The notes beneath the pieces are model-generated. The model saw nothing but the letters and a program-made list of their open reading frames with translations, made no database searches and had not been told where the DNA came from. The translations under genes and the position numbers were made by a program. Shown here one piece after another: positions 3,454 through 29,028 of a stretch of DNA of 64,000 bases; positions within the stretch are counted from its first letter, which is position 1, and each line of letters opens with the position of its first letter. This DNA comes from Escherichia coli (GTDB taxonomy: Bacteria; Pseudomonadota; Gammaproteobacteria; Enterobacterales; Enterobacteriaceae), in assembly GCF_001677475.2 (NCBI RefSeq), contig NZ_CP015229.1; one strand, written 5' to 3'.

Positions 3454-5755
3454 GTGTCAGTTCCGGACCGTTGTATTTTTCCAGCCATGCCAGCGCCGTA
3501 TTACCCGCACAGCCATTCCCCAGCCGCGAGCTGGGGAGATCTTTGGTCAGCACGTTCACTGCGCCGTTTTTACAAATACCGTCAGCGGTTAAATCCAGAT
3601 CCGGCCATGCCCCTTCGTGAATGCAAATCACGCCAGGTTTAATTCCCTCGCTAATGACTGCCCCGGCAAGAATTTGCCCGCGTGCGTTCCACAGCCGAAC
3701 AGTATCGCCATCTTGTATGCCGCGCGCCTGAGCATCGTCAGGATGAATGGTGACAGGCTCACGGTTTGCCACCGCGTACAATTCGCGCAGAGAACTGTAA
3801 TTCAGCTGGCTGTGCAGACGATGTGCCGGATGAGCAGAAAGTACCTGCAACTGTTCCGGTTCGGCATTGCCCTGCCATTCGTCCGGCTCCAGCCACATTG
3901 GATGCCCCGGGCAATCCGGATAAGCGTAATCAGCAATACGCTGCGAGAAGATTTCAATCTTACCACTGGCAGTTTTTAATGGATGCGCCTGCGGATCGCG
4001 GCGAAAATCGGCGAAGCGAATAAACCGCTCGCTGTCTGGGTTTTCCGGCATCTCAATTAACTGGTTGGCTTGCCAGAACTCAGCAAATGGCGGCAATTCA
4101 ACCTGCTGGCTTGCCCCGCGCTGCCGGGCAACGTTATAAAACGTTTCCAGCCATTGCAGCTCACTTTTTCCTTCCGTAAACCGCGCATAGCCGCCCTTCT
4201 CCCAACGTTCACTCAACTCGGCAAAGACATCAAAATCATTACGCGCTTCATAACGTGGCGGCACCACTTGTTTCATCAGCACCAGATGCTGATTGCTGTA
4301 ATCGCCGGTCATGGTGAGATCATTACGCTCAAACGAGGTGGTCGCAGGCAGAACGATATCCGCGTGTTTCGCCGCCGCCGTCCAGAAGCATTCAGAGATC
4401 ACCACCAGCTCCGGTTTTTGCCAGGCACGGATCAGGCGATTGGTATCCTGATGATGAGTAAAGTTGGCACCGCCCGCCCACCAGATAAAACGAATATCCG
4501 GGAAATGTCGGTCCATACCGTTATGTTGATATGCGCCACCGGGGTTTTCCAGTGCTTCAACAATGCGGGCAACAGGGATTTTATCCACCGCATCGGTGCC
4601 GCCAGGCAAGCTGCCCTGCATGGAAGAGAGCACCGCAGCGCGGCGAGTGGGGTTACCACCATTGGCAAAATGGTAAGAAAGTCCAAAACCGCCGCCGGGT
4701 GTGCCGATTTGCCCCAACATTGCCGCCAGCGTGACGATCATCCAGTGTTTTTGCTCACCAAACTGTTGGCGCTGCATTCCCCAGCCAGCCATCAGCATGG
4801 TAGTATTTTGATGGAAAAGAGCCGCCAGTTCGCGGATTTTCGCTGCGCCAACACCACAAATCCCTGCCGCCCATTCGGCGGTTTTCGCTATTCCGTCGCT
4901 CTCGCCCAGCAAATAAGAGGCGAAAACGTCATAACCTGTGGTGCAACGCGTCAGAAACGCTTCGTCGTGCCAGCCATTTTCCACCAGCGTATGGGCGATC
5001 CCTAGCATCAGCGCAACATCGGTGCCCATGTGCGGTGCCACCCACTCCATTTTATCGCCAAAGAAATCGACGGTTTCCGATCGCATTGGATCAATGCAGA
5101 TCAGCTTTTTCCCGCTGTCACGCAGTGCGGAAAAGTAAGAAAGCCCCTGCTCATCAGATGCATTCCACGCAATTTTCAGCGTATTGAGTGGGTTAGCACT
5201 CCACAACACCACGACATCGCTATGTTCCAGCACCAGCGGCCAACTGGTTTGCTGCTGATAGACTTCGCTGCCCCCCACGACATATGGCATGATCGCCTGT
5301 GCCGCGCCGGTCGAATAATCCCCCAGATGCCCGGTATAACCGCCTGCCAGCGCCATATAGCGTTGTAATAATGTCGAGGCCTTATGCAGCACGCCGTTTG
5401 AACGCCAGCCGTAGGAACCAGCAAAAATCGATGCCGGACCATAAGCCTCACGAATACGTTTATGTTGTTGGTGAATAAGCTCCAGCGCCTCATCCCAACT
5501 CACACGAACAAATTCATCCTGCCCACGAATGCCTTGCGGGTTTTCCGGTGACGCGAGAAAGCCTTTGCGCACCATTGGAAATCGTACCCGCGTATTGCTG
5601 TGAACCTGGTCGCGAACCGCGCTCTGCAAGGAATTTTCCATTCCTGTGGCTAACGCGCCACGTGAGCTAAACACGGTTTCGCCGTCAGTTTCAACCAGCA
5701 TGGGCCCCCAGTGGGCGGCAGTCAGAACGGAATATCGTGAGGATGAGTTGGCCAA
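3422..5755 (-). CDS. bisC: Biotin sulfoxide reductase (molybdopterin oxidoreductase)
   Basis: 777-aa ORF recognised as BisC ([26 protein letters not shown]...); 3' end overlaps the 3' end of yiaC by 32 nt, convergently. Confidence 0.9.
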
Positions 5756-5907
5756 ACCGAAGGCTCCTGAAAGGTTAGATGTATTGAGCAGTTAAATATT
5801 ACTTACAAATTTCCGAGTATTCCCAGGAATAATCTTCATGTTCACGCGGCATAATCTCCCGCCACGGAACCCGTGGCAAAGAATAAAAAGGTTATTAAGG
5901 ATTAACA

Positions 5908-6567
5908 ATGAAGAAACGTGTTTATCTTATTGCCGCCGTAGTGAGTGGCGCTCTGGCGGTATCTGGCTGCACAACTAACCCTTACACCGGCGAACGCGAA
6001 GCAGGTAAATCTGCTATCGGCGCAGGTCTGGGCTCTCTCGTTGGCGCGGGTATTGGTGCGCTCTCTTCTTCGAAGAAAGATCGCGGTAAAGGCGCGCTCA
6101 TTGGCGCAGCAGCAGGCGCGGCTCTGGGCGGCGGCGTGGGTTATTACATGGATGTGCAGGAAGCGAAGCTGCGTGACAAAATGCGCGGCACCGGTGTTAG
6201 CGTAACCCGCAGCGGGGATAACATTATCCTCAATATGCCGAACAATGTGACCTTCGACAGCAGCAGCGCGACCCTGAAACCGGCGGGCGCTAACACCCTG
6301 ACCGGCGTGGCAATGGTACTGAAAGAGTATCCGAAAACGGCGGTTAACGTGATTGGTTATACCGACAGCACGGGTGGTCACGACCTGAACATGCGTCTCT
6401 CCCAGCAGCGTGCGGATTCCGTTGCCAGCGCGTTGATCACCCAGGGCGTGGACGCCAGCCGCATCCGTACTCAGGGCCTTGGCCCGGCTAACCCAATCGC
6501 CAGCAACAGCACCGCAGAAGGTAAGGCGCAAAACCGCCGTGTAGAAATTACCTTAAGCCCGCTGTAA
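5908..6567 (+). CDS. yiaD: OmpA-domain lipoprotein YiaD
   Basis: 219 aa; lipoprotein signal peptide with lipobox (LAVSGC); glycine-rich linker; C-terminal OmpA-like peptidoglycan-binding region (...GYTDSTGGHDLNMRLSQQRADSV...). Confidence 0.9.
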   Translation: MKKRVYLIAAVVSGALAVSGCTTNPYTGEREAGKSAIGAGLGSLVGAGIGALSSSKKDRGKGALIGAAAGAALGGGVGYYMDVQEAKLRDKMRGTGVSVTRSGDNIILNMPNNVTFDSSSATLKPAGANTLTGVAMVLKEYPKTAVNVIGYTDSTGGHDLNMRLSQQRADSVASALITQGVDASRIRTQGLGPANPIASNSTAEGKAQNRRVEITLSPL

Positions 6568-9242: not shown

Positions 9243-9250
9243 GCACATCA

Positions 9251-9409
9251 ACGGTTTGACGTACAGACCATTAAAGCAGTGTAGTAAGGCAAGTCCCTTC
9301 AAGAGTTATCGTTGATACCCCTCGTAGTGCACATTCCTTTAACGCTTCAAAATCTGTAAAGCACGCCATATCGCCGAAAGGCACACTTAATTATTAAAGG
9401 TAATACACT
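9251..9409 (+). promoter_or_regulatory. cspA: cspA long 5'UTR (cold-box, RNA thermosensor leader)
   Basis: Leader begins ACGGTTTGACGTACAGACC, containing the cold-box-like TGACGTACAGA at 9256..9266, and runs about 159 nt to the ATG; the cspA leader is an established cold-responsive RNA element. Confidence 0.75.
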
Positions 9410-9622
9410 ATGTCCGGTAAAATGACTGGTATCGTAAAATGGTTCAACGCTGACAAAGGCTTCGGCTTCATCACTCCTGACGATGGCTCTAAAGACGTGT
9501 TCGTACACTTCTCTGCTATCCAGAACGATGGTTACAAATCTCTGGACGAAGGTCAGAAAGTGTCCTTCACCATCGAAAGCGGCGCTAAAGGCCCGGCAGC
9601 TGGTAACGTAACCAGCCTGTAA
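9410..9622 (+). CDS. cspA: Major cold-shock protein CspA
   Basis: 70-aa [41 protein letters not shown]...; RNP1 motif KGFGFI and RNP2-like VFVHF. Confidence 0.97.
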
Positions 9623-9650
9623 TCTCTGCTTAAAAGCACAGAATCTAAGA

Positions 9651-9678
9651 TCCCTGCCATTTGGCGGGGATTTTTTTA
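9651..9678 (+). terminator. Rho-independent terminator of cspA
   Basis: Stem TCCCTGCC / GGCGGGGA followed by T-run TTTTTTTATT at 9671..9680. Confidence 0.8.
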
Positions 9679-9809: not shown

Positions 9810-9962
9810 TTACTCTTTTAAATTGCAGGCTAAAAATGCCGCCAGCTCATAACTCCCCTGTTTAATATGCAATTCACACAGTGAATCTCTTATCATCCAG
9901 GTGAAAAATAAAAGCGTGAAACAAATCACTATTAAAGAAAGCAATCTATATTTCTGCGGCAT
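9810..9962 (-). CDS. hokA: Hok-family type I toxin (small membrane peptide), HokA-like
   Basis: 50-aa product MPQKYRLLSLIVICFTLLFFTWMIRDSLCELHIKQGSYELAAFLACNLKE: single transmembrane helix plus conserved Cys, characteristic of Hok/Gef peptides. The same frame extends upstream to an ATG at 10022 (70 codons). No IS element interrupts the locus. Confidence 0.8.
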   Translation of the reverse strand: MPQKYRLLSLIVICFTLLFFTWMIRDSLCELHIKQGSYELAAFLACNLKE

Positions 9963-10284
9963 TCCCAGCCCCCTGTGTTGATTTCCAACGAGTAAGAGGC
10001 TAACCTTATGGTGTCTATGCATAGAGGGGCCTCACTTTGATTTATAGTCAGGTGGGGCTTTTCTCTGTCTGCCTTTCGGTGAATACCTGAGACAAACAGT
10101 CTCAAGCACCCGTGGCTATTCTAGCTTAATAAGTTTGTTTCTTCTCCTTGATATAATCCTAAAAAAATCTCATAAAATTAATATATGAGATAATCTTTAT
10201 TCAGCAGAAGATTATTAAAGGTTGCTGTATTATTTAGCGATAAAAAAAGCCTGCCAGATGGCAGGCTTTTTAATAACGGCGTTA

Positions 10285-13369: not shown

Positions 13370-13678
13370 TTAACGCATGGAAAGATGCAAAAAATGGCCA
13401 TCTGCGTCAAAAGAACAGACAAACTGCTCTTTACGGAAGGTATAACCGCGCATTTCGTAGCTTCCCTGGAACTGTTCAAATGCGGTGACGTCGATTTTTT
13501 GCTCGCCGGTGTTATAACGTTTCGCCGCCTGATCCTTGCATAACGCTTCCATATTCAACGAACGCAGAGGATCAACCTTTACCCGTTGTGCTTTCTGCAC
13601 GGGTGACGGTGTAGAACAACCCACTAGCACCATAAGCGCCATAAGCGCCATTGCCGGAAAGAAAGAGTTCATCATCAT
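13370..13678 (-). CDS. ysaB: Uncharacterised lipoprotein YsaB
   Basis: About 100 aa; signal peptide with lipobox LVGC. Three consecutive ATG codons at 13670..13678 make the exact start ambiguous. Confidence 0.75.
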   Translation of the reverse strand: MMMNSFFPAMALMALMVLVGCSTPSPVQKAQRVKVDPLRSLNMEALCKDQAAKRYNTGEQKIDVTAFEQFQGSYEMRGYTFRKEQFVCSFDADGHFLHLSMR

Positions 13679-14848: not shown

Positions 14849-14889
14849 GTAAAAGCCCGGTCACATTGGACTGACCGGGCTTACGTGAG

Positions 14890-15330
14890 TTATTCGCTGT
14901 ATTCTTCCGGGGTAACCTGTGTTTCTTTTGGTGGGTTTATTCCGGCATCACGAATATTTTTCTGCACCGCTACTGCACCAAACAAGCTTAAGAAGAAAGC
15001 CAGTCCATAAAAACCTTTTTCGCTGAGTAATAATGTCGCATTCCACAGACCTACCATCAGTAATGCAACAGAGATAATAAAGACAGTCAGGCAGGTCATA
15101 TAATAAATGGAAGTGGTCGGTATGCCTTCATACTTGTCCCGAACGGTCTTTTGATAAGACGCCGCAGAAAACAGTCCTAATACCAGTACGGCAAAATAAT
15201 ATCCTTTTTCATTTAACTGCATCTCTGCATTCCATAGCCCTAACAGATAGGTAACGATACCACCAACGAGAGCTATCCATGACACAATACTAAAGGCCGG
15301 TGAATAGGTTGATATTTTGTTGTCCATCAC
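14890..15330 (-). CDS. yiaA: Inner-membrane protein YiaA (YiaA/YiaB family)
   Basis: 146-aa ORF with four hydrophobic helices arranged as two internally repeated halves (...[19 protein letters not shown]... / ...[19 protein letters not shown]...). Confidence 0.8.
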
Positions 15331-15372
15331 AGTATTCCTTTCATTCCTGAATGTGTAAGAGCTTTATGTTGC

Positions 15373-15714
15373 TCATGCCGAGCGAAACAAACGCATTTGA
15401 CCAAACAAGCAGACAAAAAAGGCGATGGGATAGATCACCATTTCATAAGCATTGATAGGTGCATTTAAAACACCGATAAACAAGAGACCGATAGTGATTA
15501 ACGCAACTAACTGGCAAATATGGATAAAAAAATCATCCAGTTGCCCGAGTTTTTCTGCGCGAAGATATGCATAGTTGCCAAAAGTTGCCGTCATTAACAC
15601 GCCAAGAAAATAGCCTTTTCCACTTAACAATGGGCATGAGATCCATAGCCCAACCAGATAAACCAGCGCCCCGACAACAAATAATAGTTTTGCCACAGTC
15701 TTTGAGGTTTTCAT
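15373..15714 (-). CDS. yiaB: Inner-membrane protein YiaB (YiaA/YiaB family)
   Basis: Start at internal ATG 15714 (MKTSKTVAKLLFVVGALVYLVGLWI...), 113 aa, with GGAG Shine-Dalgarno about 6 nt upstream; paralogous to the adjacent yiaA. Confidence 0.8.
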   Translation of the reverse strand: MKTSKTVAKLLFVVGALVYLVGLWISCPLLSGKGYFLGVLMTATFGNYAYLRAEKLGQLDDFFIHICQLVALITIGLLFIGVLNAPINAYEMVIYPIAFFVCLFGQMRLFRSA

Positions 15715-15882
15715 AACGATCTCCATATCTACCAGCGATACATTACGAGTAACCAACGAAAGACAAAACTGAAAAATGCCATTAACAAATGATTTTCAGA
15801 ATAAATTCATACTAAATATTAATTAATTACTGAGATGTATAGATGTGAATTATCCCCCACCCGGTCAGGCAGGGGATAACGT

Positions 15883-28929: not shown

Positions 28930-29028
28930 GCCTGATGCGCTACGCTTATCAGGCCTACATGATTTCTGCAATATATTGAATTTGGTAGAATTTGTAGGCC
29001 GGATAAGGCGTTTTAGCCGCATCCGGCA
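28930..29028. repeat. BIME: pair of inverted REP elements
   Basis: GCCTGATGCGCTACGCTTATCAGGCCTAC (28930..28958) and GTAGGCCGGATAAGGCGTTTTAGCCGCATCCGGCA (28994..29028). Confidence 0.85.

Follow-up and report, generated by a model that had tools for sequence, protein, structure and literature searches.

The region analyzed here carries yiaA and yiaB, which encode inner-membrane proteins of the YiaAB family (PF05360, TCDB 9.B.44). We consider this identification, taken together with the evolutionary account presented below, highly probable. The two genes lie in a stretch of 64,000 nucleotides of Escherichia coli DNA, which we call the window. Duplication of a two-helix hairpin came first and is ancient and family-wide; duplication of the whole gene came later and is recent, being confined to a few enterobacterial genera. 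The pair is a worked example of ancient intragenic doubling followed by gene duplication with asymmetric divergence. The two coding sequences are:

14890..15327, minus strand: yiaA, open reading frame of 145 aa, stop codon within the span; RefSeq yiaA has the same span.
15373..15714, minus strand: yiaB, open reading frame of 113 aa, stop codon within the span; divergent four-helix paralog of yiaA.

The yiaA reading runs from an ATG at 15327 to 14890, and a GTG is located one codon upstream of that ATG. The gene order, wecH - yiaA - yiaB - xylB, matches the RefSeq annotation of E. coli. Both proteins exceeded the gathering threshold of Pfam PF05360 (26.6 bits): YiaA scored 135.5 bits (E = 7e-40) in two domain stretches, and YiaB 44.7 bits (E = 1.6e-11) in a single stretch, residues 6-51. 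Each scored best on its own NCBIfam model. YiaA obtained 197.8 bits on NF008482 (cut-off 150) and 75.8 on NF008492; YiaB obtained 171.6 bits on NF008492 (cut-off 130) and 46.6 on NF008482. We identified the genes as yiaA and yiaB because these scores far exceed the curated cut-offs and RefSeq agrees, using these names in 5424-5425 of 5426 complete E. coli genomes. The alleles of the window show 99.2-99.3% DNA identity to their nearest counterparts in complete E. coli genomes, among them K-12 derivatives, and the top protein match carries the name Shigella dysenteriae. The window proteins are founding members of the YiaAB family (PF05360 'yiaA/B two helix domain'; NF008482, NF008492; TCDB 9.B.44); open reading frames, motifs, two-domain architecture and gene order are all alike, with no difference of substance. 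Standard databases and published work already cover both genes, their family, and the two-helix domain with its internal duplication.

The initial annotation described YiaA as two similar halves, each a pair of transmembrane (TM) helices with a GLWNA...EKG(Y/F)Y motif. We located the following elements, the repeats by self-alignment and hhalign and the turn motifs by direct reading of the sequence:

15130..15303, minus strand: YiaA repeat 1, residues 9-66 (TM1, periplasmic turn, TM2, cytoplasmic QKTVRD).
14941..15114, minus strand: YiaA repeat 2, residues 72-129 (TM3, periplasmic turn, TM4, cytoplasmic QKNIRD).
15196..15240, minus strand: turn motif of repeat 1, G30-L-W-N-A34 ... E40-K-G-Y-Y44.
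15007..15051, minus strand: turn motif of repeat 2, G93-L-W-N-A97 ... E103-K-G-F-Y107.
15136..15153, minus strand: Q59-K-T-V-R-D64, juxtamembrane, at the cytoplasmic end of TM2.
14947..14964, minus strand: Q122-K-N-I-R-D127, its counterpart where TM4 meets the cytoplasm.

The description held on both points: the motifs stand at residues 30-44 and 93-107, four helices were obtained by AlphaFold2, and the formal self-alignment of the halves gave significant similarity. The halves have 18 of 42 core residues in common. Their Smith-Waterman score was 102, compared with a mean of 24.2 for composition-preserving shuffles (z = 16.5, 0 of 2000 reached it). Profile-profile comparison of repeat 1 with repeat 2 (hhalign, 48 family members) aligned all 58 columns, with E = 6.6e-29 and a probability of 99.8%. 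Transmembrane segments in general align spuriously well, and the repeat might be regarded as a mere compositional artefact of aligning hydrophobic helices. The probability of this is practically nil. When helices and loops were kept intact during shuffling, the mean score was 31.3 (z = 9.3) and 0 of 5000 shuffles reached 102, while the reversed-sequence control scored 23. These segment-preserving shuffles, together with the profile comparison, rule the artefact out. Moreover, the conserved motifs are placed in polar turns and in the juxtamembrane region, outside the hydrophobic cores. The QKTVRD / QKNIRD pair is a feature beyond the motif of the initial annotation.

AlphaFold2 modelled YiaA with a mean pLDDT of 92.1 (helices 10-33, 38-66, 73-96, 101-129) and YiaB with a mean pLDDT of 84.6 (helices 5-25, 33-55, 61-84, 89-112). 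Each protein is thus predicted to be a compact bundle of four TM helices built from two tandem helix-turn-helix hairpins; structure comparison of these bundles gave no informative relative. The four hydrophobic segments have a mean Kyte-Doolittle hydropathy of 1.76-1.96. In 48 sequences, the mean number of Lys and Arg was 1.5 in the N-terminus, 2.96 in loop 2, 2.90 in the C-terminus, 1.21 in loop 1 and 0.98 in loop 3, which sums to approximately 7.4 on the presumed cytoplasmic side vs 2.2 on the periplasmic side. This distribution suggests four TM segments with the N- and C-termini both in the cytoplasm. Reportedly, global topology work mapped both YiaA and YiaB as C-terminus-in. The GLWNA/EKG(Y/F)Y turns would then lie on the periplasmic face of the membrane, and the QKxxRD motifs probably mark the points at which helices 2 and 4 reach the cytoplasm.

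The strongest conserved features of the YiaA family are two interfacial belts, W-N/E-K-G-aromatic outside and doubled Q-K-x-x-R-D inside. Among 48 family members, G30, L31, E40, K41, G42 and Y44 were each conserved in at least 80%. In the turn of repeat 2, G105 was invariant in family members, and E103, K104 and F106 were conserved in at least 87%. The first QKxxRD was conserved at Q59 (91%), K60 (97%), R63 (95%) and D64 (95%), and the second at Q122 (100%), K123 (97%), R126 (91%) and D127 (97%). We found no conserved charged or polar residue in the membrane core of the family (48 sequences); TM segments average approximately 0-0.2 Lys/Arg and approximately 0 Asp/Glu residues.

Comparison of repeats between proteins dated the hairpin duplication. 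Repeat 1 shared a mean of 48.7% identity with repeat 1 of other proteins, and repeat 2 shared 46.0% with repeat 2, while repeats 1 and 2 inside one protein shared 34.3%, a lower value with 0 exceptions among 48. Since repeat 1 is nearer to repeat 1 of other proteins than to its own repeat 2, the duplication is older than the sampled family, which spans Proteobacteria, Bacteroidota, Bacillota, Acidobacteria and Chloroflexi. The sequences indicate that the hairpin doubled once, before all sampled members diverged. Duplication from two to four helices in the YiaAB family has already been stated (PMC3061005). Like YiaA, F-type ATPase c-subunits and elements of the voltage-gated ion channel family arose by tandem intragenic hairpin duplication to four helices, the two repeats being oriented alike (PMC3061005). 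However, these systems translocate ions and have conserved intramembrane carboxylates or selectivity elements, whereas YiaA has no conserved intramembrane charge, and we found no sequence or specific fold relation between YiaA and either of them. As a side observation, database entry P0364 suggests an independent re-duplication of the hairpin, and entries P0288, P0354, P0360 and P0368 suggest collapse back to one hairpin.

YiaB can be divided in the same way:

15547..15714, minus strand: YiaB hairpin 1, residues 1-56, with GLW...GKGYF kept (hhalign against YiaA-family repeat 1, E = 5.4e-15).
15376..15546, minus strand: YiaB hairpin 2, residues 57-113, degenerate, with GVLNAPINAYEMVIY instead of the turn motif and no QKxxRD (hhalign against repeat 2, E = 1.5e-12).

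The initial annotation stated that YiaB repeats the YiaA unit. Homology was confirmed by BLASTP (E = 1e-12, 31% identity, collinear across approximately 110 residues), but the statement has to be amended with respect to copy number. YiaB is collinear with YiaA across both hairpins and therefore contains two units, not one, and the GLWNA/EKG(Y/F)Y signature is gone from the second, which reads GVLNAPINAYEMVIY. In hhalign comparisons, YiaB half 1 matched repeat 1 best and half 2 matched repeat 2 best. Pfam detected two copies of the two-helix domain in YiaA and one in YiaB, the second YiaB copy being found by hhalign. The two halves of YiaB have no detectable similarity left to each other (z = -0.1 by shuffles; hhalign E = 0.024). 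The more general claim, serial duplication of a two-helix membrane module, was upheld by Pfam, shuffles, BLASTP and hhalign.

Of 35 positions conserved in the family, YiaB retained only 12; the turn motif of its second hairpin and both QKxxRD motifs are gone. Its nonsynonymous rate was 3.5-4.4 times that of yiaA: dN was 0.35 for YiaB and 0.09-0.10 for YiaA in comparison with Citrobacter, and 0.71 and 0.16, respectively, in comparison with Superficieibacter. These losses, the single hairpin seen by Pfam, and many shortened database entries and IS1-disrupted alleles could mean that yiaB is a decaying duplicate heading for a pseudogene. We consider this very unlikely. Within Escherichia dN/dS was 0.03-0.08 for both genes, and that of yiaB (0.03-0.06) was as low as in xylB and wecH. 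The two-gene stretch was matched uninterrupted in approximately 98% of 5426 E. coli genomes. Hairpin 1 of YiaB has its own subfamily-invariant residues in 23 orthologs (W24, C27-P-L29 and K33GYFLGVL40), and 24 columns, including the eight-residue run KGYFLGVL, are invariant among orthologs down to 38% identity. The four-helix model of YiaB is also fairly confident. YiaB has therefore diverged approximately 4 times faster than YiaA and has lost most family-conserved residues, but it has gained an invariant motif of its own and is under purifying selection. IS1 insertions that inactivate yiaA or yiaB occur in natural isolates, therefore neither gene is essential.

The whole-gene duplication is narrowly distributed. 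Tandem yiaB-yiaA was present in 4 of 80 fetched loci (L002-L005), and among these 80 loci yiaB adjoined yiaA only in Escherichia, Citrobacter and Superficieibacter. The YiaB homologs found all came from Escherichia, Citrobacter, Klebsiella oxytoca and genera like these, and there were 141 YiaB clusters vs more than 7900 YiaA clusters. The tandem position suggests that yiaB is a copy of the whole two-hairpin gene, made in place; this argument for local duplication is drawn from position, not phylogeny. YiaB shares 30-38% identity with YiaA proteins whatever their phylum and is about as far from the enterobacterial ones as from the rest; outside the YiaB group, its best match is to an additional YiaA-like gene that Citrobacter sp. 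Cu233 carries at a different locus. Both facts would fit horizontal acquisition of an already divergent yiaB that landed beside yiaA, which we regard as improbable. The genes are in tandem on the same strand with a 45-nt spacer, yiaB is confined to a few related genera, the family was not found in phages or mobile plasmids, and no divergent donor lineage with the YiaB signature was present among 524 family representatives or the 80 loci. Local tandem duplication remains our preferred origin of yiaB.

Three intergenic elements were found around the two genes:

14855..14880, minus strand: perfect 9-bp stem with 8-nt loop in the gap between the convergent genes wecH and yiaA; UUUUA comes next on the yiaA strand.
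15328..15372, minus strand: yiaB-yiaA spacer, 45 nt, with a Shine-Dalgarno-like AGGAA ahead of the yiaA start.
15850..15880, minus strand: 14-bp hairpin directly behind the stop codon of xylB, between xylAB and yiaB.

The hairpin at 14855..14880 had a fold energy of -21.2 kcal/mol (z = -5.3, 0 of 200 shuffles). It was not called by the consensus terminator scan and is likely the yiaA terminator. The spacer contained no stable hairpin (-7.3 kcal/mol, z = -1.3), therefore read-through from yiaB to yiaA is possible. The two genes have been handled as separate transcription units (PMC10127797). The hairpin at 15850..15880 (-21.5 kcal/mol, z = -3.9, 0 of 200 shuffles) may act as a terminator or insulator. 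One terminator-like match inside yiaB (15439-15421) was taken as chance, with 1 observed vs 1.2 expected.

The initial annotation placed the genes beside the xylose operon. The adjacency is true, but it is lineage-specific synteny. A hairpin lies just past the end of xylB, and the linkage is not conserved elsewhere. We surveyed the neighbourhood by all-against-all clustering of open reading frames in 80 loci and by a Pfam scan of 150 flanking genes, which hold 130 different Pfam families. FGGY (xylB-type) kinases were found at 4 of 80 loci and wecH-type acyltransferases at 5. There was no conserved gene partner across the 80 family loci; the sole recurrent neighbour was a Crp/Fnr-type regulator, directly upstream in 14 Bacteroidota loci. 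Two apparent conserved-neighbour clusters were discarded, as they consisted of out-of-frame or antisense open reading frames overlapping yiaA itself. The position on the same strand immediately downstream of xylB, kept in Escherichia, Citrobacter and Superficieibacter, might indicate that the two genes are co-expressed with xylAB and assist in the uptake or metabolism of xylose. We find this extremely unlikely. The stable hairpin and the rarity of FGGY kinase neighbours speak against membership in the xylose (XylR) regulon or the xylAB operon. Phytobacter yiaA adjoins wecH and not xylB, and natural IS1 knock-outs exist. In addition, our literature search found no paper tying yiaA or yiaB to xylose, and the xylAB cassette engineered into Zymomonas holds only the fragments yiaB' and yiaA'. 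Being next to xylAB is no proof of functional linkage, and the adjacency is a historical accident of synteny.

Stress links of YiaAB genes in the literature are scattered and high-throughput or second-hand. The yiaA gene was described as being under sigma-32 control (PMC10519446), a SoxS ChIP site was listed at Salmonella yiaB (PMC10268841), and a YiaAB-domain gene of Variovorax was 26-fold up in biofilm (PMC7494200). The Crp/Fnr-type regulator of the 14 Bacteroidota loci may be a further hint of a stress role. We searched the window for the sigma-32 pattern CTTGAAA, 13-15 nt spacer, CCCCATnT (14 specified positions) and found no exact match. The best partial match covered 9 of 14 positions and was equalled in 298 of 300 shuffles. 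A sigma-70 consensus scan upstream of yiaA and yiaB gave nothing above chance on the gene strand. Literature matches for 'yiaA' were mostly the misspelt phylotyping gene yjaA, a YIDD-to-YIAA mutation or unrelated strings.

YiaA is a functional orphan despite more than 50% identity across phyla. Among the possible mechanisms, we tentatively favour one in which YiaA would be a membrane protein that stands alone and has no enzymatic activity. The two conserved belts and the numerous small-residue packing motifs might drive self-association, and the resulting oligomer might help to maintain envelope or membrane homeostasis during stress. The YiaB of Escherichia could be a variant subunit or a specialised partner. 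As a rather unlikely alternative, YiaA, with or without YiaB, might form a small oligomeric channel or a secondary carrier that moves an ion or small solute. Such a role would agree with the filing in TCDB class 9.B ('putative transporters'), with the treatment of 9.B.44 alongside channel and ATPase c-subunit families of two-TMS hairpin origin (PMC3061005), with a degree of conservation across phyla that is very high for a membrane protein of this small size (YiaA of E. coli and of Bacteroidota share 50-66% identity), and with the conserved charged or polar E40/K41, E103/K104, Q59 and Q122 at both membrane surfaces. However, the membrane core has no such conserved residue, and no conserved transporter, substrate-binding or regulatory partner is nearby. 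A bolder and doubtful reading is that the belts of the stand-alone, unusually well conserved YiaA mark an undescribed, widespread membrane-homeostasis or lipid-/ion-handling activity. YiaB, having shed the belts and kept C-P-L...KGYFLGVL, might then be the subunit that modulates a YiaA/YiaB hetero-oligomer in its own lineage.

PHROGs and PADLOC models gave no match to YiaA or YiaB at E <= 0.01, and tblastn against 50,697 phage records gave none. These empty searches ruled out a phage or anti-phage membrane effector (holin, abortive infection). Plasmid origin was rejected as well, the plasmid matches being chromids or mislabelled chromosomes. No Rfam family overlapped the yiaA-yiaB region. On the plus strand, antisense open reading frames of 40-49 aa were present at 14885-15010, 15452-15574 and 15567-15716; as candidate genes, we judged them to be spurious shadows of the coding strand.

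The two genes are placed as follows:
yiaA, 15327..14890, minus strand, open reading frame of 145 aa counted from the ATG
yiaB, 15714..15373, minus strand, open reading frame of 113 aa

The pair is flanked by glyQ, ysaB and wecH/yiaH at one end and by xylB and xylA at the opposite end; the order wecH - yiaA - yiaB - xylB is that of the E. coli RefSeq annotation. Of 5426 complete E. coli genomes, 5425 had a megablast match to the yiaA/yiaB stretch, invariably chromosomal (top identity 99.3%), and the top protein match of YiaA was Shigella dysenteriae YiaA (99%). Pfam PF05360, "yiaA/B two helix domain" (gathering threshold 26.6 bits), matched YiaA in two stretches (135.5 bits) and YiaB in one (44.7 bits). 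The NCBIfam models NF008482 (YiaA; 197.8 bits, cut-off 150) and NF008492 (YiaB; 171.6 bits, cut-off 130) each scored best on their own protein. Judged by these matches, both proteins belong unambiguously to the YiaAB family. The initial annotation had read the pair as serial duplication of a two-helix module. This observation and its interpretation were correct and already known; both PF05360 and TCDB 9.B.44 are named after yiaA/yiaB themselves. Our additions are descriptive and stay inside that family: which duplication came first, how YiaB diverged asymmetrically and lost motifs, a second conserved motif (QKxxRD), and a xylose linkage that is not conserved.

The motifs quoted for YiaA were exact (G30LWNA34 ... 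E40KGYY44 and G93LWNA97 ... E103KGFY107), and its two halves were similar. Smith-Waterman alignment of half 1 with half 2 scored 102, above all shuffles: composition-preserving shuffles gave a mean of 24.2 (z = 16.5, 0 of 2000 at 102), shuffles inside each helix or loop segment gave a mean of 31.3 (z = 9.3, 0 of 5000 at 102), and the control with half 2 reversed scored 23. Profiles of repeat 1 and repeat 2 (residues 9-66 and 72-129), taken from 48 diverse family members, were aligned by hhalign over 58 of 58 columns (probability 99.8%, E = 6.6e-29). On these alignments, the repeat is real. It is longer than had been described, as each unit closes with Q-K-x-x-R-D (Q59KTVRD64 and Q122KNIRD127), the top-conserved feature of the family (Q122 invariant; K60, K123 and D127 at 97%). 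In the ungapped core (residues 23-64 against 86-127) 18 of 42 residues were identical and DNA identity was only 50%; this low value shows the hairpin duplication to be old.

Among the 48 members, mean identity was 48.7% between repeat 1 and foreign repeat 1, 46.0% between repeat 2 and foreign repeat 2, and 34.3% between the two repeats inside one protein. No protein (0 of 48) had a repeat 1 that resembled its partner repeat 2 more closely than it did the median repeat 1 of the others. The hairpin doubling is therefore older than the divergence of the sampled family, which ranges over Enterobacterales, Acinetobacter, Xanthomonas, Betaproteobacteria, many Bacteroidota, Neobacillus, Acidobacteria and Chloroflexi. 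Two strict peptide patterns drew matches from at least 581 species genomes, with proteins 50-66% identical to E. coli YiaA; at the 50% clustering level the family had 524 representatives. Serial duplication was borne out by the alignment and profile tests. The tandem yiaB-yiaA pair was present in only 4 of 80 family loci (Escherichia, two Citrobacter, Superficieibacter), and homologs formed 141 clusters for YiaB versus more than 7900 for YiaA; the gene-level duplication giving yiaB is recent and local. YiaB was about equidistant (30-38%) from all YiaA proteins, so the tandem duplication is deduced from position and not from a tree.

Some family members departed from the two-repeat plan. Both halves of the divergent protein P0364 (158 aa) were of repeat-1 type with 46.6% mutual identity, a pattern suggestive of a duplication that arose independently, or of gene conversion between its repeats. 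Four proteins of 79-90 aa (P0288, P0354, P0360, P0368) had a single hairpin, in which helix 1 of repeat 1 runs straight into the repeat 2 loop and helix 4, as a deletion between the paired GLWNA...EKG motifs would produce. Either the duplication was reversed in nature or the repeats were collapsed in assembly.

The initial annotation stated that YiaB repeats the same unit. Homology to YiaA was evident, as the proteins are collinear across about 110 residues (BLASTP E = 1e-12, 31% identity), but YiaB contains both hairpins and not one extra unit. Its half 1 matched repeat 1 (E = 5.4e-15) better than repeat 2 (1.1e-8), and its half 2 matched repeat 2 (1.5e-12) better than repeat 1 (2.5e-7); therefore what was copied to give YiaB is the entire gene with its two hairpins. 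Likeness between its own halves is gone (profile E = 0.024; alignment z = -0.1). YiaB retains only 12 of the 35 positions at least 80% conserved across the family; neither QKxxRD motif survives in it, nor does the second EKG turn. Between genera it evolves much faster than YiaA (dN 0.35 against 0.09-0.10 for Citrobacter, 0.71 against 0.16 for Superficieibacter). We considered decay of YiaB and rejected it, because 24 columns were invariant in 23 orthologs reaching down to 38% identity (among them W24, C27-P28-L29 and the run K33GYFLGVL40), dN/dS inside Escherichia was 0.03-0.06, comparable to xylB and wecH, and about 98% of E. coli genomes had an uninterrupted yiaA/yiaB match (5306 of 5426 at ≥80% coverage; 58 of 60 evenly sampled records).

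About 2% of the 5426 genomes were without an uninterrupted copy. IS1 was found inside yiaA of an E. coli bloodstream isolate (NZ_CP103694.1, 161585-162798) and inside yiaB of a natural strain (NZ_CP065613.1, 2485619-2486737); therefore both genes are dispensable. Seven of the 8 best megablast matches to the region carried an insertion (IS1, in one also IS5). Compared with E. coli NU14, yiaA had 32 differences in 438 nt and dS of 0.32, approximately 3 times that of adjoining yiaB, xylB and wecH (0.11-0.12). Both yiaA and yiaH were earlier named candidates for inter-lineage recombination (PMC1779527).

Position next to the xylose operon was confirmed in that the pair adjoins xylB; the linkage is not conserved. 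FGGY kinases (xylB type) flanked 4 family loci and Acyl_transf_3 (wecH type) 5, with 130 different Pfam families among 150 directly flanking genes. The genomic context of the family is not conserved, and a role in xylose metabolism, which adjacency to xylB might recall, is highly unlikely. Two hairpins were found by folding:
immediately after the xylB stop codon, 14-bp hairpin, -21.5 kcal/mol, z = -3.9
14855-14880, beyond the yiaA stop codon, perfect 9-bp stem followed by UUUUA, -21.2 kcal/mol, z = -5.3

Folding found no stable structure in the 45-nt yiaB-yiaA spacer, and no promoter near the genes rose above chance in consensus scans. On the simplest reading, xylAB would be insulated from yiaB and yiaA, which may be read through jointly. 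An earlier study handled them as two transcription units (PMC10127797).

The sole recurrent family neighbour was a Crp/Fnr-type regulator of about 187 aa (Pfam cNMP_binding), placed next upstream of the yiaA homolog and in the same orientation in 14 loci from Bacteroidota:
L014, L027-L029, L034, L043, L047, L049, L050, L052, L054, L061, L072, L074, at about 5280-5925 in most

In six Acinetobacter loci (L046, L053, L055, L056, L059, L060) glycine-zipper lipoprotein genes (Gly-zipper_Omp / YMGG-like, about 140-210 aa, at times several in tandem) lay a few kb from the yiaA homolog. No family match was found in phages, PHROGs, PADLOC or truly mobile plasmids.

The AlphaFold2 model of YiaA from the 48-sequence alignment (mean pLDDT 92.1, pTM 0.83) shows a predicted four-helix membrane bundle of two parallel hairpins (helices 10-33, 38-66, 73-96 and 101-129; turns of 4-6 residues), and the YiaB model had the same plan (pLDDT 84.6). 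Lys+Arg in the family obeys the positive-inside rule, with means of 1.5 at the N-terminus, 2.96 in loop 2 and 2.90 at the C-terminus, against 1.21 and 0.98 in loops 1 and 3. Therefore both termini and the QKxxRD motifs are probably cytoplasmic, and the GLWNA/EKG(Y/F)Y turns would lie at the periplasmic surface. The analysis shows yiaA to be a stand-alone gene under strong purifying selection, with conservation concentrated in two interfacial belts; family conservation revealed no conserved charged residues within the membrane. The main rival to the mechanism proposed below is a small oligomeric channel or carrier, as the TCDB filing implies, but YiaA is without intramembrane polar residues and partner genes are absent, which makes such a function rather doubtful.

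Literature hints on function are indirect. The yiaA gene was described as under sigma-32 control, its transcript tracking stress-linked alsK expression (PMC10519446), and acid-adapted lines acquired a yiaA mutation (bioRxiv 10.1101/659706). In Salmonella, yiaB has a listed SoxS ChIP site (PMC10268841), and a silver screen recovered yiaB as a hit in its DNA-damage response category (PMC6071238). Lrp mutant D114E, unlike wild-type Lrp, activates both genes (PMC10127797), and a Variovorax YiaAB-domain gene was 26-fold up in biofilm (PMC7494200). We tentatively propose, as the likeliest mechanism though one of low probability, that YiaA could be a non-enzymatic membrane protein, which would self-associate via small-residue-rich helices and contribute to membrane or envelope homeostasis during stress, with YiaB acting as a specialised partner in Escherichia and closely related genera.

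No Rfam family overlapped the yiaA/yiaB region. In the window, Rfam matched:
9250-9677, plus strand, cspA thermoregulator (gathering-level match, 501 bits)
9960-10111, minus strand, CssrC, sok-type antitoxin RNA (gathering-level match, 120 bits)
28951-28993, minus strand, ES036/CssrF sRNA (38.9 bits, barely over threshold)

The small lipoprotein gene ysaB (13370-13678, minus strand) differed from its NU14 allele at 30 of 300 nt with dN/dS of 0.43, a constraint far below that of its neighbours.
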